From an uncultured archaeon (lineage in GTDB: Archaea; Asgardarchaeota; Lokiarchaeia; Sigyniarchaeales; SOKP01): a DNA stretch of 21,928 bases. The position numbers were made by a program, and so were the translations under genes. Below, piece after piece: positions 5,374 through 21,823 of this stretch (the stretch's first letter is position 1; every line of letters starts with the position of its first letter). The notes beneath the pieces are model-generated. The model was given only the letters and a program-made list of their open reading frames with translations. It searched no databases and was not told the origin of the DNA. Location: the NCBI GenBank assembly GCA_964632315.1, contig CAZWEM010000027.1, positions 33,614-55,541 of the forward strand, written 5' to 3'.

Positions 5374-6621
5374 ATGAAACCTAGAAATGTTATCTTAGGG
5401 ATCGATGGCATTCCTTATGAATTGATGAAAAATCTCTCTGATAAGGATATTATGCCGAATTTTAAAGAGTTGTGTAAAAATTACATATTTCTTCGATTAA
5501 AATCTTCAATTCCTCATATCTCATCCGTGTCTTGGAGTTCAATTATCACTGGCAAGAATCCAGGTGAGCATGGTATTTTTGGGTTCACAGACATTATCAG
5601 AAACACTTACTCACTGAGTTTTCCAAATTTCAACACCTTAAAATGCAAGCCCTTTTGGCATAATAAGCCATCTCAAAGACACATAATCTTAAACGTTCCT
5701 TCTACATATCCAGCAAAAGAACTGAACGGCATTCATATTGCAGGTTTTGTCGCCTTGGATTTAAAAAAAGCAACTTATCCCATGGAATATGTTGAATTTT
5801 TGAAAAACTTAAAATATGAAATTGATATTGATACCAGTTTAGCTCATGAACAATCTCAAGAATTATTATTTAACGAATTAAGTCGTGTGTTATCTATTAG
5901 AAAAAAAACATATCAAAGCTTATGGAATGAATTTAAATGGGATAATTTTATGGTCGTCATTACTAGTACCGACAGGTTTGGCCATTTCTTATGGAATACA
6001 TACGAGAATGAAAATCATGAAAATCATGATAGATGTTTATCTTTTTTTAGAGAAGTAGACGATTTTATCGGAGATATTTACAGTAAATTAGGTGAAAATG
6101 ATACTTTTATAATTTTATCAGATCATGGCATGGAAAGTGTTAATGTAAATTTTAACCTAAACACCTTTTTAGAACAAGAAGGATATCTAAAATTAGGTTC
6201 AGAGGGCAAAAATTACAATCGAATATTGAAAGAAACAAAAGCTTTTGTGTTAGATCCGGGTAGGGTTTACTTAAACCGAAGTAAAAGATATCCAAATGGA
6301 AGTGTTAGTGAGTCGGAAGGAAAATCAATTCTTGATGGTTTAAAGAATTCCTTGCTTGACTTGAAATATGAAGGAAAAAAGGTTATAAAGAAGATTTATG
6401 AAAAAGAAAAGATATACCATGGTCCTTATGTAAATCTTGCTCCCGATTTAGTAATTCATGAAGAATCTGGTTATCAACCAAAAGGTAATATTGGAAAGAT
6501 AAATTTATTTGAAAAGGATAATTTTAGTGGCATGCATAATGCTAATGCATTTATTCTAATAAATAAGGATATTGATATTGAATATCCTTCTGTAGAAAAT
6601 ATAATTGAGTTTATGGTTTGA
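5374..6621 (+). CDS. AlkP-superfamily COG3379-like protein (predicted Ser nucleophile)
   Basis: GIDG, SSIPHISSVSWSSIITGKNPGEHGIFGF, NVPSTYP, DRFGH, SDHG, APDLV, SGMH. Its stop overlaps the TTG of the next gene (TTGA at 6618-6621). Confidence 0.9.
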   Translation: MKPRNVILGIDGIPYELMKNLSDKDIMPNFKELCKNYIFLRLKSSIPHISSVSWSSIITGKNPGEHGIFGFTDIIRNTYSLSFPNFNTLKCKPFWHNKPSQRHIILNVPSTYPAKELNGIHIAGFVALDLKKATYPMEYVEFLKNLKYEIDIDTSLAHEQSQELLFNELSRVLSIRKKTYQSLWNEFKWDNFMVVITSTDRFGHFLWNTYENENHENHDRCLSFFREVDDFIGDIYSKLGENDTFIILSDHGMESVNVNFNLNTFLEQEGYLKLGSEGKNYNRILKETKAFVLDPGRVYLNRSKRYPNGSVSESEGKSILDGLKNSLLDLKYEGKKVIKKIYEKEKIYHGPYVNLAPDLVIHEESGYQPKGNIGKINLFEKDNFSGMHNANAFILINKDIDIEYPSVENIIEFMV

Positions 6622-8144
6622 CTTTTATGAAGAAATTACACAATGCAAATAAGACATGTTGGAATTGTCCAGCAGCAAAATTAATGGGAAATATTGACTT
6701 CAGGGCATGTGGACAAGCAGGAAAATTAAATCTAGATGCTGATGAAGATCAAGAGATCGTGATCGAGTGTAGAAGACGCCCAGAATTAGGTTACTTCGAG
6801 CCTAACATCACCTTTGAACAGTGCCCCGAATGGGAAGCAACTGATTTTGGATACATCCTTAAAAACATGAAAGTAATGATACTTGGAATTGATGGGTATC
6901 TGGGATGGACTTTAGCCCTGAAACTGGGAAAATTAGGATTTCAAGTTAGTGGTCTTGATAATTACACCCGAAGAGATTGCGTGATGGAAAAAGGAGCCCA
7001 TACAGTCATCCCAATACCTAGGATGACCGAAAGGTTAAAGGCAGCTAATGATCTCTTGGGAATAAATATTTATTTCAGAAAGATTGATCTTAATGATGAG
7101 GCAAAAGTCCGTGAGTTTGTTGATGAGGTGAAACCAGAATCAATCGTTCATTATGGAGAGATTCCAAGCGCACCCTATAGCATGGCAGATTTAAACCATG
7201 CGGTAAAAGTGCAAAATAATAATGTTTTAGCCACCTTGAAACTTTTATGGATCATGAAAGATATTGTCCCAGAATCTACCTTAATCAAATTAGGTACAAT
7301 GGGAGAATATGGAACACCATTAACCGGAAGACCTCTCTTTGAAGGGTTGTTTCCTGCAGATGCAATGATTAAATGGGACGATCGAGAGTGGAGTTTGGGA
7401 GGAGAAACGACTCCTAGGGATCCGGCAAGTTATTACCACGTGAGCAAGGTTCAAGATACCTTTAATATACTAGAGGCCTGTAAATATTGGTGGCTAAGAT
7501 CTTATGATGTCATGCAAGGCGTCATTTATGGAGTATATACTGAGGAAATTGCATCAGATAAACGTTTGAGAACTCGATTTGATATTGATGAATGGTTTGG
7601 AACAGTGATTAATCGATTTGTTTCACAAGCTGTCTCAGACATCCCATTAACAATATATGGTAAAGGAGAGCAAATTAGAGGTTTTATTGCGCTCAATGAT
7701 GCAATGCAATGCATGGTTCGTTTAATAATATCTCCTCCAGAGCCAGGTCAATATGATGTGGTAAACCAAGTTTCTGGTTTGTATAAAGTGAACGATTTAG
7801 CTGAAACGGTTGCGAGAGTTGGTATTAATAAATTCAACCTAGATGTTAAAATTCAACGATTAGAAAATCCAAGAGTGGAAGCTGACACCCATCCATTTGA
7901 AGTAGTCTCCAAAAAATTACCGAGAGTATTTGGCTTCAATCCACAAATATCCTTAGATGAAGAAATTGAACGAATGATGAGGGTGTTAAGAGAAGATGAA
8001 ATTAAATCTCGAATTGATCAAAAACGACAAACTATCATGCCTGTAACTACGTGGCAAGGCGAAAAACGGAAAATGAAGGAACTCGAGCAATATAATCCAG
8101 GAACTAAAAAAGCTGAGGGATATAATCCTATTTTTGACACGTAA
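6618..8144 (+). CDS. sqdB: UDP-sulfoquinovose synthase (SqdB/SQD1/Agl3 family) with extra Cys-rich N-terminal domain; start may be ATG 6627
   Basis: GIDGYLG, DNYTRR, HYGEIPSAPYSM, KLGTMGEYGTP, SYYHVSKVQD, QGVIYG, FGTVINRF, PLTIYGKGEQIRGF and NPRVE all match SQD1/SqdB motifs. The SDR domain begins at Met84 (6867). Confidence 0.92.
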   Translation: MTFMKKLHNANKTCWNCPAAKLMGNIDFRACGQAGKLNLDADEDQEIVIECRRRPELGYFEPNITFEQCPEWEATDFGYILKNMKVMILGIDGYLGWTLALKLGKLGFQVSGLDNYTRRDCVMEKGAHTVIPIPRMTERLKAANDLLGINIYFRKIDLNDEAKVREFVDEVKPESIVHYGEIPSAPYSMADLNHAVKVQNNNVLATLKLLWIMKDIVPESTLIKLGTMGEYGTPLTGRPLFEGLFPADAMIKWDDREWSLGGETTPRDPASYYHVSKVQDTFNILEACKYWWLRSYDVMQGVIYGVYTEEIASDKRLRTRFDIDEWFGTVINRFVSQAVSDIPLTIYGKGEQIRGFIALNDAMQCMVRLIISPPEPGQYDVVNQVSGLYKVNDLAETVARVGINKFNLDVKIQRLENPRVEADTHPFEVVSKKLPRVFGFNPQISLDEEIERMMRVLREDEIKSRIDQKRQTIMPVTTWQGEKRKMKELEQYNPGTKKAEGYNPIFDT

Positions 8145-8234: not shown

Positions 8235-8546
8235 ATGGAAGTGACTGATAAAACCTTTGAAAAGGAGATCCTTCTTTCTAAGAAACCAGTTCTTATTGAA
8301 TATTGGGCTTCATGGTGTGTACCATGTCAGATGATGGATTACGTTTTAAAAGAATTAGAAGTAGATTATGGAGATAAGCTCAAAATCGCCAAACTAAATA
8401 TCGACCGAAATCGTAAAACACCAAGAAAATTCGAACTTACCGGTGTTCCGACGGTCATGACGTTTAAAGGTGGTCATGTCATTGAAACCAGAGTTGGAGC
8501 ACAATCTAAAAAGAATCTTATTCAAATGATCGAAAGGGTATTATAA
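8235..8546 (+). CDS. trxA: Thioredoxin
   Basis: 103 aa, PVLIEYWASWCVPC, GVPT cis-Pro motif, VGA. 1-nt TAATG overlap with the next gene. Confidence 0.93.
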   Translation: MEVTDKTFEKEILLSKKPVLIEYWASWCVPCQMMDYVLKELEVDYGDKLKIAKLNIDRNRKTPRKFELTGVPTVMTFKGGHVIETRVGAQSKKNLIQMIERVL

Positions 8547-9487
8547 TGATGAAAGTATTGATAACTGGTGGATGTGGATTTATCGGATCTAACTTAACAG
8601 AATTTCTATTAAATCAAACTGACTGGGAAATTAACATTTTGGATGATCTTTCTAATGGGAGTTTAGAAAATATTCAATCGCTTGAAAACTACAAAGGAAG
8701 AGTACAATTTTTTAAAGGCTCGATTTTAAATGATAAAGATATTGCTTTAGCGATTAATGAGTGTGATTATGTAATAAACCTAGCCGCTCAAACGAGTGTT
8801 TTGAATTCCATTAAGAATCCTTTAGAAGACTTGCGTCATAACGTTTTTGGATTATTACAATTACTACTGAAATCTAAAGATTCAGGTGTCAAGAAATTAA
8901 TTCAAGCATCCTCAGGAGCAGCTCTAGGAGATCAGGCAATGCCAATTCATGAATTGAAAATTCCACAACCAATTTCACCCTACGGAGCGAGTAAATTGGC
9001 CGGAGAAGGTTACTGCTCTGTATTTTCTGAAACATATGACCTTAAATGCGTGGTGTTACGATTTTCAAATGTTTATGGCCCAAGATCTCAATATAAGAGC
9101 TCAGTAATTGCAAAATTTATAAAAAAATTTCTAAATCATGAATTACTTGAGATTTATGGGGATGGCAATCAAACAAGAGATTTCATTCATGTAAGGGATA
9201 TATGCAGAGGAATCTATGAATCACTGGTTCAAGATACAGGAAAATATAATTTGTTTCAATTGGGTTCCGGAAAAGAAACAATTTTAAATGATATGCTCCA
9301 CATTTTAGTTGAAATAGCCAGAAAAAATGACATTGAAATCCCTGAAATCAAAAATGTTGATCCTAAACCAGGAGAAATCCTTCGAAACTATGCTGATATT
9401 AGTAAAGCTTCAAAAAAATTAGGTTTTTCATGTGAAATAGATTTAAAACAAGGATTGAAAGAAACTCTTAAATGGTTCATTGCTTAG
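8546..9487 (+). CDS. NAD-dependent nucleotide-sugar epimerase (UDP-glucose 4-epimerase-like extended SDR)
   Basis: GGCGFIG, DDLSNG, NLAAQTSV, SPYGASK, RFSNVYGP, GDGNQTRDFIHV. Confidence 0.88.
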   Translation: MMKVLITGGCGFIGSNLTEFLLNQTDWEINILDDLSNGSLENIQSLENYKGRVQFFKGSILNDKDIALAINECDYVINLAAQTSVLNSIKNPLEDLRHNVFGLLQLLLKSKDSGVKKLIQASSGAALGDQAMPIHELKIPQPISPYGASKLAGEGYCSVFSETYDLKCVVLRFSNVYGPRSQYKSSVIAKFIKKFLNHELLEIYGDGNQTRDFIHVRDICRGIYESLVQDTGKYNLFQLGSGKETILNDMLHILVEIARKNDIEIPEIKNVDPKPGEILRNYADISKASKKLGFSCEIDLKQGLKETLKWFIA

Positions 9488-14761: not shown

Positions 14762-17700
14762 TTGGTAAGTGTTATTTTTGCTTTTATCTACTTTACCTTT
14801 TTAATTCAAAGCTATATCATTCCTAACGCTTATAATATTCCAATTGTAGTGTTTATTGGATATTCAATAATAATAGGTCTTTATTTTTTTTTCTTTATTC
14901 TCAAAGAACGTGATTTATCAAAGAGTTACCAAATCAAGTTTGTCAGTGAGGATTTGTTTAAGATTACCCTTATTATACTTATGGTAATAACATACTTCAT
15001 TCCTCCAATATCTTTCTCAGATGTTATAGTCGATTGGGGTGAAGTTGGATTTTTAAATTACATTAGAAGCATAACTTTGCTTCTCGGATGCTTATACATT
15101 CCTGGTTCAAGTCTCTATAATTTATTCCTTAGTAAAATTGACATTCCAAGCAAATTGAATGTTGAGCCATTTTTAATTAAAATAACCTTTTACCCTCTTT
15201 TGTCTCTTTCCTTAATAGGGACTTCTACTCTTATTTTTGAAAAATTAGGATTACAGAGAGATTATTTCACTTATCCTCTTTTCTCTATTATTTTAATCCT
15301 ATATTTTATAGAGTACTTTTTAAGAAAAAGATCCTCTGTTTCCACTAAGTTTAAAAAAATATTAAATTTGAATATATCAAAATCTACAATAGTTGTTCTC
15401 TTTCTCTGTCTTTCAGTTATCATTATTGGATTGGGCTTTTTTATAGTCGCCCCATATGGACTCCGAGAAGATCCACATAGAGGTATAATGTATGCTCAAC
15501 TTGTAGGTTTAAAGGATACGCCTTCATATGGTGTGTATTGTATCTTCTGGGGTTATATTTCTTTTGGTTTAAGCGAATTAAGTGGATTACCAGCTATTAA
15601 TGTCAATGCAATACTTTTTCCTTTATTATATCTCTTCATTTCAAGTCTTTATATCTTTTACAAAGCCTTAATGAATAAAAATATACATACACGAACTGCT
15701 ATTTTTGCATTACTATTGTTTGTAACTTTTTCTGAATTTTCTAATTTTATTGATAGCGAAACCGAATTAATTAATATTACTTACTTGTTTATCGATACCT
15801 TATTTATGCTCACGTTTAAAGGAATAGCGTTCTTTTCATTTTCCGTCTCAATCACATTATTTACTCTCCTTTTTAAGACACAAGAGGAAAGAGATTCTAA
15901 ATTCAATCCAAAACAAATTGATTCAATTCATTCAAAAAACGAAAGAAATGCAGAAATTATATTGATATTCGCGGGAAGCTGGTTTCTAATACAAAGTTTC
16001 TTATTATACATTTTTCCTGTTTTAATAGCTTTTATTTTCATGATAATTTATTCGATTTTTTCTAGTAAAAAGGAAAAGAACTTCAATTTTACATCTTATA
16101 GCGTTGTTAGTTTTATATTAATATTCACATTATTCGATATCCTATCGAATTTCTTCTATAGCAATACAATACAAGGGATTTTGGCAACCTTTTTTGGAAA
16201 TTTATATCCATTTACTTATTCAGATAATATTAAAACCATATTTTTTTATTCATTCTTATTGATTTTGGTAATCATATGGTTAGGTACATCAAAGCTATAT
16301 GTGAAGATTTCGAAACATCTCTTTAGAGTTTCCGAAAAAAAGAGGGATTATCGTTTCATCATTATAGTATTGATGATTATTTTTATAGGCTTTTTTATTT
16401 TAGAAATAATTTTGAACCTGATGTTCACCAAAAGAAGACTATACTTGTTTACTTATTCATTGCATTTAATATTTGTAAATCTTGGGTTTTTAGGGATTAT
16501 GGTCTTTCTTTTTATGCCATTGATTTTTAAACATGAAGAGAAGCTCTTTTCAATCCTATTTTCTTGGTTTATCATTATTTTTCTCATTTCTTCAGTATTG
16601 CTAGTTAAATGGATAGTAAGGCCTTATCCATATCTTACTATGTTTTCGGATTTTTTTATTATAGAATACTGGTTTAGTCGTTATAGCTTTTATAGTATTA
16701 TCCCACTATCTATTCTAGGGGCTATATTAATCGTAAATTTACAAAAGATTAAATTTAGAATAAAGATGTCTAAAAAAGTCAAAAATATTTTCCAATACCT
16801 CATAATTTCAACGTTAATTATTTTTTTAGTTTCAAATAATATTCAATCAGCTATAGACAAATATAATACGAAACAATTAAATGATAATGAAGCTAAGATG
16901 ATAGGATGGATTTCTGATAATATTCCCTTTAAAGAATCGATATTGGTTGATAATAGCATTTATTACACGTATGTTCGAGATTTCTTGTTCAATAAAAGAG
17001 CAAGATTAGACTTAGAAGTAGATAATATCCTAAACAATTATGAATTTCTTACAGTAATGAATGAAAAAGATCATAATTGTTCAATAATGCTATACGAAAA
17101 ATTAGGGGAAAATGTGAATGTCTTGGAATTTCAAGATAATAACAATAGCGGAAAAGTTTCGAGCTCTGTTGCTTTTGAACAATCTTACCAATCAGGGTGG
17201 ATAAGTTTTGATTATATGACTTCCAATAGCACAAAAAATTTTAATATTAATTTATATGCAGCTTTATATGCTCAAGTTGCAATTCAGTTATCTATTTCAT
17301 CGAAAGAATTACGTTATTTTAATGGAACGAATTATCAAAAAATTGCAAATATTGATAAGAATAAATGGTATTCATTCAAAATTTTTTTTGAAACATCAGA
17401 TTTAAATAACTATAATCTAACAAAATATCAATGGAAGGTTTTAATCAATGGTACTGATTATGGAGTTTATCCTTTTCTAAATAGTATTCCTAATATTTTT
17501 TTGTTTCAAATTAGTACTTCTAACAGTGACTATAATTGGTCCAATTTTCTCACTAATTTTCATTTCTCTTGGAATGTTCCAAGCATTTTTGAATATAATA
17601 TCATTAAATACCCATTGATAATAAAAGAGTTACGAAAAATGAATATCAATTATTTCATTTTATCAGAAAAAGACTCTCTAATTAAACAGAGAATAAAGGA

Positions 17701-17791
17701 AGACATTGATATTCAAAATGAATTAATCCCTCATTTTTATAATCGAAGCATTTTTCACCAAAATGGAATAACTATATATTCTACTTCATAA
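14762..17791 (+). CDS. Large polytopic membrane protein, putative GT-C-like glycosyltransferase with extracellular C-terminal domain
   Basis: Many TM segments over aa 1-~690, acidic ED in an external loop (REDPH), WFSRY near the last TMs. The soluble tail has 'AKMIGWISDNIP..SILVD ... LRKMNINYFIL', resembling GT-C/STT3-like C-terminal domains. No WWDYG motif. Confidence 0.6.
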   Translation: MVSVIFAFIYFTFLIQSYIIPNAYNIPIVVFIGYSIIIGLYFFFFILKERDLSKSYQIKFVSEDLFKITLIILMVITYFIPPISFSDVIVDWGEVGFLNYIRSITLLLGCLYIPGSSLYNLFLSKIDIPSKLNVEPFLIKITFYPLLSLSLIGTSTLIFEKLGLQRDYFTYPLFSIILILYFIEYFLRKRSSVSTKFKKILNLNISKSTIVVLFLCLSVIIIGLGFFIVAPYGLREDPHRGIMYAQLVGLKDTPSYGVYCIFWGYISFGLSELSGLPAINVNAILFPLLYLFISSLYIFYKALMNKNIHTRTAIFALLLFVTFSEFSNFIDSETELINITYLFIDTLFMLTFKGIAFFSFSVSITLFTLLFKTQEERDSKFNPKQIDSIHSKNERNAEIILIFAGSWFLIQSFLLYIFPVLIAFIFMIIYSIFSSKKEKNFNFTSYSVVSFILIFTLFDILSNFFYSNTIQGILATFFGNLYPFTYSDNIKTIFFYSFLLILVIIWLGTSKLYVKISKHLFRVSEKKRDYRFIIIVLMIIFIGFFILEIILNLMFTKRRLYLFTYSLHLIFVNLGFLGIMVFLFMPLIFKHEEKLFSILFSWFIIIFLISSVLLVKWIVRPYPYLTMFSDFFIIEYWFSRYSFYSIIPLSILGAILIVNLQKIKFRIKMSKKVKNIFQYLIISTLIIFLVSNNIQSAIDKYNTKQLNDNEAKMIGWISDNIPFKESILVDNSIYYTYVRDFLFNKRARLDLEVDNILNNYEFLTVMNEKDHNCSIMLYEKLGENVNVLEFQDNNNSGKVSSSVAFEQSYQSGWISFDYMTSNSTKNFNINLYAALYAQVAIQLSISSKELRYFNGTNYQKIANIDKNKWYSFKIFFETSDLNNYNLTKYQWKVLINGTDYGVYPFLNSIPNIFLFQISTSNSDYNWSNFLTNFHFSWNVPSIFEYNIIKYPLIIKELRKMNINYFILSEKDSLIKQRIKEDIDIQNELIPHFYNRSIFHQNGITIYSTS

Positions 17792-19256: not shown

Positions 19257-20405
19257 ATGATTCAACCACATGGTGGAAGATTAGTCAATAAAGAATTACC
19301 TAAAATGGAAAAAGAAAGGATTTTAGGTGAATCAGATGAGTTTTATAAAAAAACTGTTAATCCCCAGACGTTAAAGGTAATAAAGAACATTGCTTATGGG
19401 GTTTTTAGCCCATTAGAAGGATTCATGAATGAAAATGATTTTCATTACGTCCTTGACGAAATGTATCTTCAAAATAATTTAGCGTGGCCAATACCGATTG
19501 TACTTGATGCTGATAGAGAAGAAACCCAACAATATCAAGTGGATGATCGGATCATTTTAACCAATCAATCTGGAATTCCCCTTGCTATCATGTCAATAGA
19601 GGATATATATAGTTATGAAAAGCAAGAATTCGCAGAAAAAGTATATGGAACGTTAGATCAGAATCATCCTGGAGTACAAAGTGTTTACGATCTTAAAGAA
19701 ATACTAATTGGGGGAGAAATATTTTTATTAAATGAACCTAAAGCTGTTTTTCCAAGTTTAGATCTAAAGCCTTTAGAAACACGAGTGCTATTCAAACAAA
19801 AAAAATGGGATAAAGTGGTCGCATTTCAAACTCGGAATCCACCTCATTTAGGACATGAATACGTCCAAAAAGCTGGCCTTACTTATGTCGATGGTTTATT
19901 CATTAACCCTGTAATCGGAAAGAAAAAAAGCGGGGATTTCAAGGATGAAGTTATAATAGAATCATATCAAGCATTAATTAAAGAATATTATCCTCAAGAT
20001 AGGGTAGTATTAAGCACTTTTGAAACAGAAATGCGATATGCTGGACCAAAGGAAGCAATATTTCATGCAATAGCTCGAAAAAATTTTGGATGTGATCATA
20101 TCATTATCGGTCGAGATCACGCCGGAGTAGGAAATTATTATGGACCATATGATGCGCATTACATCTTTGATAAATTTCCTGACCTTGGAATTGAGCCAAT
20201 TAAATTTCGATCTTTTTCAAAATGTAGCAAGTGTAACGCGGTTGTTAATGATAAAATTTGCCCACACCCACCTGAAATGCAAAACTATTTTGCTGGGAGG
20301 GATATTCGAGCCGCTCTTAGTGCAGGAAAACCACCCGACACAGAAGTAATGCGTCCTGAAGTAGCAGAAGTCATTTTAAAGTATAAAAATCCTTTTGTTG
20401 ATTAA
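19257..20405 (+). CDS. sat: Sulfate adenylyltransferase (ATP sulfurylase)
   Basis: PHGG, FSPLEGFM, WPIPI, FQTRNPPHLGH, MRYAGPKEA, GRDHAG, CxxC...CPH zinc site. Confidence 0.97.
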   Translation: MIQPHGGRLVNKELPKMEKERILGESDEFYKKTVNPQTLKVIKNIAYGVFSPLEGFMNENDFHYVLDEMYLQNNLAWPIPIVLDADREETQQYQVDDRIILTNQSGIPLAIMSIEDIYSYEKQEFAEKVYGTLDQNHPGVQSVYDLKEILIGGEIFLLNEPKAVFPSLDLKPLETRVLFKQKKWDKVVAFQTRNPPHLGHEYVQKAGLTYVDGLFINPVIGKKKSGDFKDEVIIESYQALIKEYYPQDRVVLSTFETEMRYAGPKEAIFHAIARKNFGCDHIIIGRDHAGVGNYYGPYDAHYIFDKFPDLGIEPIKFRSFSKCSKCNAVVNDKICPHPPEMQNYFAGRDIRAALSAGKPPDTEVMRPEVAEVILKYKNPFVD

Positions 20406-20434
20406 AACAAGATAATAGGTTTGAGGATGTTTAA

Positions 20435-21823
20435 TTGAGTAATAATAAAAAAGTCTTACTTATTGGGTTAGATTGTGCTACACCACGCACCCTTTTTCAA
20501 GATTTCATAGAAGAATGTCCAAATATAAAAAAGTTGATGGAAAACGGTGTTCATGGAAAACTAAGAAGTAGTGATCCTCCCATTACTGTTCCCGCTTGGA
20601 TGGTAATGGCAACAGGCAAAAAACCAGGCACGTTAGGAGTATATGGATTTCGCCATAGAAAAGGTAATTCTTATAATGATTTTTGGGTGGCTAATTCTCA
20701 GACAATTAAAGAAGAAAAAGTCTGGGACATTATTAGCAAGGAGGGTTTGAAATCAATTCTTTTAGGAATTCCTCCGACTTTTCCGCCTCAACCGATAAAT
20801 GGAAATTTAATTACAGGATTTATTACTCCCGATGCACGATCAAATTTCACCTATCCTCCAGAATTGAAGGAGGAGATTATGAATAACGTGACGGATGATT
20901 ACACTTTCGATGTTTTATTCAGAACCGAAAAGAAAGAAGATTTACTCGTAAATCTATATAAGATGACTAAATTACATTTTGCTACCGTTAAATATTTAAT
21001 ACAGAATAAGGAATGGAATTATTGTCAATTTGTTATCATTGGTTTGGACAGAATACATCATGGTTTTTGGAAATATTATGATAAATTTCACCATAAACAT
21101 GAACCAGGAAACATGTTCGAAAGTGTGATTAAAAATTTTTATAAATTTCTTGATAAGCAAATTGGTGAACTTTTAGAACTAATTGATGATAACACTACAG
21201 TCATAATCGCTTCTGATCACGGTGCTAAGGCAATGAAGGGATGTTTATGCGTGAATATGGCTTTACAAGAATTAGGTTTACTTAAATTCAAAGAAAAAGC
21301 TAAATCAGGAACTCGTTTAGAAGATGCTAAAATTGATTGGAATAAAACCTATGCTTGGGGGTGGGGGGGATATTATGCTCGCATCTTTCTCAACTTGAAA
21401 GGTCGTGAGGATCTTGGAATAATCGAACCAGAAGAATATGAATCATGGAGATCTAAAGTACAAGAGTTATTGAAAAGCGTTCCTGATGATAAGGGAAAGC
21501 CAATGAACACAATCATTCATAAACCAGAAGATTTGTTCCAAAATGTTCGGGGTGATGCACCTGATTTGATGGTTTATTTTGATGATTTGAATTGGAGGTC
21601 GGCGGGTACAGTTGGATATAAATCAATGTATTTAGATGAAAATGATACTGGTCCAGATGATGCTGTTCACGATTATCATGGGATTTTTATCATATCAGAT
21701 CCGAAAAAGAAGATAGGTAAGAATCTTGGGACTAAGAATATATTAGATATCGCCCCAACCATTTTGAATATTTTTGGAGTCGAAATTCCCGCCGATATGG
21801 AAGGTAAATTAATAGAATTTTGA
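20435..21823 (+). CDS. AlkP-superfamily COG3379-like protein between sat and cysC (predicted Thr nucleophile)
   Basis: GLDC, SSDPPITVPAW..MATG, YGFRHR, DRIHHGFW, SDHG, WGWGGYYARIF, ENDTGPDDAVH, DIAPTIL..MEG. TTG start with GAGG upstream. Confidence 0.9.
   Translation: MSNNKKVLLIGLDCATPRTLFQDFIEECPNIKKLMENGVHGKLRSSDPPITVPAWMVMATGKKPGTLGVYGFRHRKGNSYNDFWVANSQTIKEEKVWDIISKEGLKSILLGIPPTFPPQPINGNLITGFITPDARSNFTYPPELKEEIMNNVTDDYTFDVLFRTEKKEDLLVNLYKMTKLHFATVKYLIQNKEWNYCQFVIIGLDRIHHGFWKYYDKFHHKHEPGNMFESVIKNFYKFLDKQIGELLELIDDNTTVIIASDHGAKAMKGCLCVNMALQELGLLKFKEKAKSGTRLEDAKIDWNKTYAWGWGGYYARIFLNLKGREDLGIIEPEEYESWRSKVQELLKSVPDDKGKPMNTIIHKPEDLFQNVRGDAPDLMVYFDDLNWRSAGTVGYKSMYLDENDTGPDDAVHDYHGIFIISDPKKKIGKNLGTKNILDIAPTILNIFGVEIPADMEGKLIEF

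Follow-up and report, generated by a model that had tools for sequence, protein, structure and literature searches.

The UDP-sulfoquinovose synthases SQD1 from Arabidopsis (PDB 1qrr and 1i24), SqdB from cyanobacteria and Rhodobacter, and Agl3 from Sulfolobus acidocaldarius share an extended short-chain dehydrogenase/reductase (SDR) fold with a catalytic Thr and Y-H-x-x-K motif, and form UDP-sulfoquinovose from UDP-glucose and sulfite. To our knowledge, the reference enzymes of this type have neither alkaline phosphatase (AP)-fold nor thioredoxin partners. They take free sulfite (PMC13436972), which a 2026 review still regards as the donor. Here we describe a gene in a 21,928-nucleotide stretch of an Asgard archaeal genome (contig CAZWEM010000027.1; hereafter the window) that encodes an SQD1/SqdB-like SDR with an 80-residue, five-cysteine domain ahead of it. 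We refer to the product as CysSqdB. Judged from its distribution, the five-cysteine domain is not special to the window gene and defines a widespread cassette, in which CysSqdB is encoded between an AP-fold enzyme and a dedicated thioredoxin. This cassette is probably how many uncultured anaerobes supply sulfur to SqdB without the usual sulfite-making genes.

The five-cysteine domain of CysSqdB

The gene is one uninterrupted open reading frame (ORF) on the + strand, from a TTG at 6618 or an ATG at 6627 to position 8144, and divides into three parts:

6627..6866 (+), or from the alternative TTG start at 6618: five-cysteine domain, residues 1-80, with a variable linker at residues 26-43; recognised by its conservation and belonging to no known family
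6867..8063 (+): SQD1/SqdB-like extended SDR core, residues 81-479; matches PDB 1i24/1qrr and NF041015
8064..8144 (+), stop codon included: family-specific C-terminal tail of 26 residues (480-505); conserved columns, not in SQD1

The ATG at 6627 is the likelier start because homologues are 505 residues long and begin with M-x-K-L-H-N. Numbered from this ATG, the domain reads C11-x2-C14-x13-C28-x19-C48-x17-C66 (codons at 6657-59, 6666-68, 6708-10, 6768-70 and 6822-24), followed by W69 and by M81 at the start of the core. An earlier, sequence-only reading of the window had counted from the TTG, and its positions for the cysteines (14, 17, 31, 51 and 69), W72 and Met84 are exact in that numbering. 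It had also described the gene as translationally coupled to its upstream neighbor. Indeed, the stop codon of that neighbor, at 6619-6621, overlaps or lies within 6 nucleotides of both possible starts, and the two genes are therefore tightly coupled whichever start is used.

Cysteine accounts for 5 of the 80 residues in the domain versus 0.85% across the other proteins of the window (binomial P = 6e-4), but conservation is the stronger argument that the domain is real. More than 100 full-length relatives of 500-520 residues match the query from end to end with 67-97% identity. In an alignment of 92 full-length homologues the five cysteines are invariant, as are W12, P15, D24, F25, G29, Q30, R50, P59, F63, and W69, and in 123 loci, taken from species genomes and metagenomes of ~20 archaeal and bacterial phyla, every one of the five cysteines that falls within the aligned stretch is kept. 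Mean column conservation is 0.75-0.80 in the domain versus 0.82 in the SDR core, and the linker at residues 26-43 alone is variable (0.54). The signature in the window is C11-x2-C14-P, C28-G-Q, E-C48-x-R-R-P-E-L-G-x-F-E-P and C66-P-E-W. One subclade has lost C28 and gained a cysteine at position 9 (C-T-C-W-N-C), and thus retains a count of five, which appears to be required; the exchange suggests that C28 lies next to the CxxC pair and that none of the five roles is dispensable. The sequence-only reading had noted one cysteine more than a four-cysteine site needs, and this surplus is a constant property of the family. The cysteine-rich extension that it described is likewise a single open frame shared by the homologues, which keep the upstream residues rather than starting at the methionine that opens the core.

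Searches of family databases leave the domain as unexplained as that reading had found it. The domain and 26 of its members gave nothing meaningful against Pfam and NCBIfam, and known metal-binding cysteine domains (zinc ribbon, ferredoxin, high-potential iron-sulfur protein (HiPIP), and rubredoxin) gave no significant sequence or profile match. A profile search of the PDB returned only the [2Fe-2S] ferredoxin domain of methane monooxygenase reductase (MMOR; 1jq4), at an E-value of 0.15, in an alignment that pairs the CxxC and the C48-x-x-x-P motif; we regard this match as a lead and have not accepted it. A feature search of the ESM Atlas with residues 1-80 reached 0.87 at best, with no family and no hit at or above 0.9, and neither the domain nor the cassette is described anywhere in the literature that we searched.

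Structure prediction suggests that the domain packs on the enzyme. With an alignment of 23 sequences, AlphaFold2 (AF2) modeled the domain alone with a predicted local distance difference test score (pLDDT) of 51.4, which is unusable for a fold search. The full-length protein was modeled with a pLDDT of 85 and a predicted template modeling score of 0.89, and in this model the domain reaches a pLDDT of 87-89 at residues 1-20 and 84-95 at residues 51-80. Because confident values are obtained only with the SDR present, the domain probably rests against the SDR, and the conserved C-terminal tail may take part in this packing. A Foldseek search with the full-length model returned SDRs only and was uninformative about the domain.

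In fold and catalytic residues, the core groups with SQD1, SqdB, and Agl3. The PDB chains 1i24 and 1qrr match residues 81-479 with an E-value of 4e-79, and the top Foldseek hit of the full-length model is 1qrr (E-value 1.8e-36, template modeling (TM) score 0.87; 0.86-0.87 for 1qrr and 1i24). Pfam matches are to Epimerase and GDP_Man_Dehyd, and the core has the N-terminal GxxGxxG Rossmann motif of an extended SDR. T224, Y270, H271, and K274, which are invariant in the 92 homologues, align with T145, Y182, H183, and K186 of SQD1. All 384 positions of NF041015 align to residues 81-477, with a score of 417.3 bits against an equivalog cut-off of 575, and CysSqdB is a distinct subfamily rather than a certified equivalog. 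Both the NF041015 and the SQD1 alignments leave residues 1-80 uncovered, in agreement with the earlier claim that the extension is absent from reference UDP-sulfoquinovose synthases, and both stop near residues 477-479. The tail beyond this point is absent from SQD1. In it E487 is invariant and Y489, P491, and G492 are nearly so, and AF2 predicts two short strands with a pLDDT of 83-88. An insertion at residues 232-266 (7320-7424), absent from or different in SQD1, is conserved, with W250, W255, G259, E260, and R264 invariant, and is modeled with low confidence. Two homologues of 845-848 residues (P0114 and P0085; locus L045) carry a further insertion of ~340 residues inside the SDR core, with a LAGLIDADG-like match, which is probably an intein.

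The AP-fold–CysSqdB–thioredoxin cassette and the free-standing module

In the window, CysSqdB is flanked on the same strand by the following genes:

5374..6621 (+): cytoplasmic AP-fold enzyme (PF01663, Phosphodiest) with a Ser nucleophile; Pfam 134.9 bits
8235..8546 (+): dedicated thioredoxin with a non-canonical WCVPC active site; TIGR01068 101.3 versus a cut-off of 96.8
8546..9487 (+): GalE/RmlB-like NAD-dependent sugar epimerase/dehydratase; Pfam and NCBIfam matches

Scanning a single genome from each species gave 102 loci. We retained 80 of these, and each encodes the domain as an in-frame fusion to SqdB. An AP-fold orthologue lies immediately upstream in 66 of the 70 fused loci that could be assessed, and a thioredoxin gene lies immediately downstream in 66 of 66. 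Three Thermoplasmata genomes with no adjacent AP-fold gene have a strong orthologue elsewhere in the genome (622-631 bits). The archaeal carriers are Promethearchaeota, Hodarchaeota, Baldrarchaeota, Thermoplasmatota, Bathyarchaeia, Hadarchaeota, Theionarchaea, Hydrothermarchaeales, Altiarchaeales, Aenigmatarchaeota, Woesearchaeota, and Iainarchaeum; the bacterial carriers are Saccharibacteria and other Patescibacteria, Armatimonadota, Zipacnadia, Lentisphaerae, Krumholzibacteriaceae, and Planctomycetota. The three-gene cassette has spread among anaerobic archaea and bacteria. The GalE/RmlB-like gene is a frequent fourth member that occupies the same place in Patescibacteria and in ERZ10759834 loci, and is less constant than the other three.

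The two partners of CysSqdB have distinctive active sites. The thioredoxin in the window scores above the family cut-off for its fold, with WCVPC in place of the canonical WCGPC. Among 69 cassette thioredoxins the active site is WC[TPVLIA][APV]C in every case (WCTAC 23, WCPPC 15, WCVPC 10, WCLPC 9, WCIPC 7, WCPVC 3, others 2) and WCGPC in none. The AP-fold protein forms an orthologous group of its own that has no NCBIfam name, with orthologues at 47-66% identity in the same taxa as the cassette. D11, S50, D200, H204, D250, H251, and H388 are invariant in 59 orthologues, giving the enzyme the bimetallo-ligand set and hydroxyl nucleophile of PF01663 proteins of the nucleotide pyrophosphatase/phosphodiesterase (NPP) type.

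The five-cysteine domain also occurs by itself. A profile of the domain was compared, with no word index, to 1.84 billion representative proteins and yielded only 48 representative matches. Apart from two spurious repeat proteins, these are fused SqdB forms or their fragments and a group of small proteins, complete at 68-108 residues. The small proteins keep the signature C-x2-C-P, C-[GS], [EQ]-C-x-[RK]-R-P-[ED]-[LI]-G-x-F-[ED]-P and C-[PS], and because free-standing proteins carry it in full, the domain is an autonomous module rather than an outgrowth of SqdB. For four of five representative proteins, a co-directional PF01663 gene (~425 residues) lies upstream, usually with an overlap of 4 nucleotides. 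A metagenome scan with a profile built from five free-standing sequences (a divergent ten-sequence profile was too loose) gave 16 more assessable free-standing loci, and an AP-fold gene abuts the small gene in 15 of them. The order in free-standing loci, AP-fold gene and then five-cysteine gene, is that of the window (5374-6621, then the domain). The AP-fold enzyme, and not SqdB, is the constant partner of the free-standing module. Two loci have no AP-fold gene. One encodes P0142, in a context of MCM, PDDEXK, and dUTPase genes. In the other (L129, 1640-2271), a free-standing gene for 97 residues lies 12 nucleotides upstream of a partial homologue of ComD, the alpha subunit of sulfopyruvate decarboxylase (TIGR03845, 148.3 bits versus a cut-off of 147.95). 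ComD belongs to another sulfite-dependent sulfonate pathway, and this adjacency, on one short and possibly chimeric contig, is a lead. In 401 genomes from the phylum of genome G028, there were four fused copies and no free-standing forms; one of the four comes from an unpublished genome (G431), which was used for no other result. The flanks of free-standing pairs were considered as a functional clue and set aside, as they contain PGA_cap and threonine-synthesis genes, MFS, and Fer4, and give no hint.

Prediction of a complex between the AP-fold enzyme and the five-cysteine domain agrees with the gene order. Its interaction score (ipSAE, interaction prediction score from aligned errors) was 0.54 (0.49, 0.54, and 0.60 in individual runs), while the best of three controls scored 0.00; contact agreement between runs was at least 71% and the pLDDT of the partner at least 71. 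The mark applied to this score is passed by 58 of 80 solved complexes and by 2 of 110 mismatched pairs, and the passes at 0.60 or under include only 7 of those 80 solved complexes and both mismatches. The prediction is rated as weak support; given that gene order had already made the pairing likely, we count it as modest support.

Sulfate activation in genomes with the cassette

Downstream of the cassette, the glycan locus in the window contains the source of adenosine 5′-phosphosulfate (APS):

19257..20405 (+): ATP sulfurylase (Sat), which makes APS, 12.6 kb downstream within the glycan locus; NF003166 487 bits
20435..21823 (+): second AP-fold paralogue, directly 3′ of Sat; Pfam 162.8 bits

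The same locus includes an ORF for 1009 residues (14762-17791) with no Pfam match at an E-value of 0.001.

The order Sat and then AP-fold paralogue (19257-21823) recurs in five further Asgard genomes and in a genome from Theionarchaea (L153-L157 and L160), and the paralogue is ~28% identical to the cassette AP-fold copy. Because the Sat–AP pair is conserved, it suggests that the whole AP-fold clade works on APS. The complete Thermoplasmatales chromosome CP070798 (G031; locus L094), the sole complete genome with no AP-fold orthologue, encodes CysSqdB and thioredoxin and likewise has no real Sat; this single case fits an AP-fold enzyme that acts on the product of Sat.

In 33 cassette genomes (32 surveyed and that of the window), strong Sat matches are found in 22, CysH above its curated cut-off in 2, and an NIR_SIR sulfite reductase in 2. 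Nearly all of the Sat-less cassette genomes have PF01507 matches, and most carry CysD-like together with CysN-like genes. Sulfate activation, by Sat or CysDN, appears to be encoded in nearly all cassette genomes. The PF01507 genes beside the cassette were considered as CysH, which would have explained the thioredoxin trivially. This identity was rejected, as the proteins are short and CysD-like with a CysD-type C terminus, have no E-C-G-I-H motif, and are encoded adjacent to a CysN/EF-1alpha-like GTPase. The CysD-like proteins are 229-274 residues long, and many of them carry CC...CxxC, an Fe-S motif known from APS reductases; their GTPase partners are 407-430 residues long. In DPANN and Patescibacteria genomes these pairs often lie within or beside the cassette locus (examples: L039 6655-8695, L041 12112-14135, L048 3420-5453, and L073 11903-14652). 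A Sat or CysD-like gene occurs inside 15 of 81 loci with a mean length of 13 kb, where ~1% would be expected for a single-copy gene by a rough estimate. The CysD-like gene of L104 (706 residues) and a split PF01507 frame in G025 look interrupted.

The genome of the window is Asgard-like and 99.5% complete (G000). It encodes Sat and has no NIR_SIR match and no PF01507 match, the latter being found in 14 of 14 control genomes. A cysC gene was looked for in the window locus and not found, and the APS-kinase matches of the genome are weak and lie on other contigs; synthesis of 3′-phosphoadenosine 5′-phosphosulfate (PAPS) in this organism is therefore doubtful, although sulfotransferase-like genes occur in related loci.

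Proposed sulfur relay, alternatives, and known systems

Our preferred reading, put forward tentatively and with somewhat less than even confidence, is that the five-cysteine domain, a module based on thiols or a metal, serves to dock the AP-fold enzyme and, with the thioredoxin, hands sulfite derived from activated sulfate to SqdB. The domain would serve as an adaptor that ties SqdB to its sulfur supply, docking the AP-fold enzyme onto SqdB, while the dedicated thioredoxin would cycle the thiols of the domain, which may be organized by a metal. APS from Sat or CysDN would be turned into sulfite at the active site of SqdB or handed directly to it, and such a relay would stand in for the missing CysH-type reductase and avoid free sulfite. 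More speculatively, the AP-fold enzyme could move the sulfuryl group of APS onto one cysteine. Candidate acceptors are C48, which lies in the E-C-x-R-R-P loop, and C28 of the flexible linker, and either the CxxC pair or thioredoxin could then resolve the resulting S-sulfocysteine to release sulfite. A bolder form of the proposal, which we think unlikely, is that the AP-fold enzyme, five-cysteine domain, and thioredoxin constitute a new CysH-independent APS-to-sulfite reductase whose product never leaves the protein, the S-sulfocysteine being resolved beside the SqdB active site, and that the two-gene AP–five-cysteine unit serves other sulfonate pathways, as hinted by the ComD neighbor. The sequence-only reading had proposed either a Zn or Fe-S module or a thiol-based domain for carrying sulfite or for redox regulation. 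The thiol- or metal-based role fits the thioredoxin in 66 of 66 loci, the sulfate activation, and the scarcity of CysH; the domain may bind Zn or Fe-S, or may be a metal-free thiol relay.

Several points weigh against the sulfite relay. We know of no AP-superfamily enzyme that transfers a sulfuryl group to a thiol, the AP-fold orthologues have no invariant cysteine, and the enzyme could have another role altogether, for example as a nucleotide-sugar pyrophosphatase or phosphomutase. Its predicted complex with the domain passes only weakly, and the roles assigned to individual cysteines are guesses. Ten of the 32 surveyed genomes have no Sat, the CysD-like assignment rests on profile scores only, and environmental sulfite or thiosulfate could be the sulfur source instead. 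SqdB, thioredoxin, and Sat are all absent from the mostly short flanks of the 16 free-standing AP–five-cysteine loci. Finally, incompleteness of metagenome-assembled genomes weakens the claims of absence, save for the genome of the window and two complete chromosomes.

We weighed four alternatives, which in descending order are a structural metal domain, a redox switch, a rhodanese-like activity, and an annotation artefact. In the first, which is possible but doubtful, the domain would be purely structural, holding Zn or a non-catalytic Fe-S cluster and docking or oligomerizing the AP-fold enzyme and SqdB with no sulfur chemistry. A CxxC knuckle with scattered cysteines, set in a small and beta-rich domain, is a typical arrangement for binding a metal; the subclade in which C28 is lost and a cysteine two residues ahead of the CxxC is gained has the look of one ligand replacing another; and both the faint MMOR match (E-value 0.15) and the confident folding of the domain only in the SDR context are in keeping with such a role. 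However, the number of conserved cysteines is five, not four, in every lineage, including the distant free-standing forms, and no metal-binding family was matched at significance. A redox-inert site would also have no need of the non-canonical thioredoxin found in 66 of 66 loci.

That invariant thioredoxin neighbor, its active sites unlike the housekeeping WCGPC, and the CxxC motif of the domain speak for a redox switch, in which thioredoxin would reduce a regulatory disulfide to turn SqdB on or off, as in the control of plastid enzymes, and no sulfur would be carried. We consider this explanation improbable. It leaves unexplained the AP-fold enzyme as the older and more constant partner, the free-standing domain with no SqdB or thioredoxin nearby, and the link to Sat/CysDN together with the lack of CysH, and strict anaerobes would scarcely need an oxidative switch for one glycan enzyme.

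Thioredoxin would have a different task if the domain were rhodanese-like and freed sulfite at SqdB from a donor present in sulfidic sediment, either thiosulfate or some other sulfane or sulfo compound. Here thioredoxin would reduce the resulting persulfide, with the AP-fold enzyme in an accessory part or none at all. There are established precedents, such as GlpE, for thioredoxin-dependent sulfurtransferases that make sulfite from thiosulfate. The basic residues after C48 (C-x-R/K-R-P) resemble those of anion-binding active-site cysteine loops, and the complete Thermoplasmatales genome retains CysSqdB and thioredoxin with no AP-fold orthologue or real Sat. Nevertheless, no likeness to the rhodanese fold or motif was found, and the AP linkage in 66 of 70 loci and the enrichment of Sat/CysDN point to activated sulfate as the source; we regard a rhodanese-like role as quite unlikely. 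The last alternative, that the true start is Met81 (Met84 in the earlier numbering; ATG at 6867, with the Rossmann motif behind it) and that the frame ahead of it is a relic or has stayed open fortuitously, is refuted by comparison with more than 100 homologues and 123 loci that retain the frame and its residues at 58-84% identity across domains of life, with conservation in the domain equal to that of the catalytic core.

The carriers of the cassette (Asgard archaea, Thermoplasmatota, Bathyarchaeia, Hadarchaeota, and DPANN; Patescibacteria, Armatimonadota, Planctomycetota, and others) activate sulfate, mostly with neither CysH nor sulfite reductase. Should the cassette produce sulfite and channel it, it would represent a new route for reduction of sulfate to S(IV), give the alkaline phosphatase fold a new role, and account for sulfonation of surface glycans by symbionts with reduced genomes. 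If it is an APS-to-sulfite reductase, it would give a concrete answer on the in vivo sulfur donor of SQD1-type enzymes. On the most cautious reading, the five-cysteine domain is an undescribed domain family with a clear and testable network of partners.

Comparison with known systems places CysSqdB close to SQD1-type enzymes, with ~38% structure-based and ~45% sequence identity over residues 81-479, and the surface-glycan setting of its locus resembles that of Agl3. In contrast to SQD1, SqdB, and Agl3, CysSqdB has the 80-residue N-terminal domain, the 26-residue C-terminal tail, the insertion at residues 232-266, obligatory AP-fold and thioredoxin neighbors, and a sub-cut-off NF041015 score. 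The five-cysteine domain is similar to plant-type [2Fe-2S] ferredoxins, HiPIP, and zinc ribbons in its size, its predicted beta-rich structure, and its combination of a CxxC with distant single cysteines, but its cysteine spacing differs and five cysteines rather than four are conserved. The upstream partner shares its fold, metal-ligand set, and nucleophile position with the NPP branch of PF01663. NPPs cleave nucleotide anhydrides, including APS and PAPS. Unlike NPPs, the partner has a Ser rather than a Thr nucleophile, is cytoplasmic, and is paired with a five-cysteine module. The likeness to CysH and to plant APS reductase (APR), in which a reductase is joined to a thioredoxin-like domain, would be functional only: as proposed for the cassette, the sulfo group of APS passes to a cysteine thiol and thioredoxin frees sulfite. 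The cassette also has a thioredoxin dedicated to it, and may resemble APS reductases in holding an Fe-S cluster. CysH has a PP-loop ATP-pyrophosphatase (PF01507) fold with a C-terminal E-C-G-[LI]-H catalytic cysteine; this fold is found in no cassette protein. Instead, the candidate catalyst of the cassette is an AP-fold metalloenzyme with a Ser nucleophile, and the cysteines reside on a separate 80-residue domain that is fused to the consumer of the sulfite.

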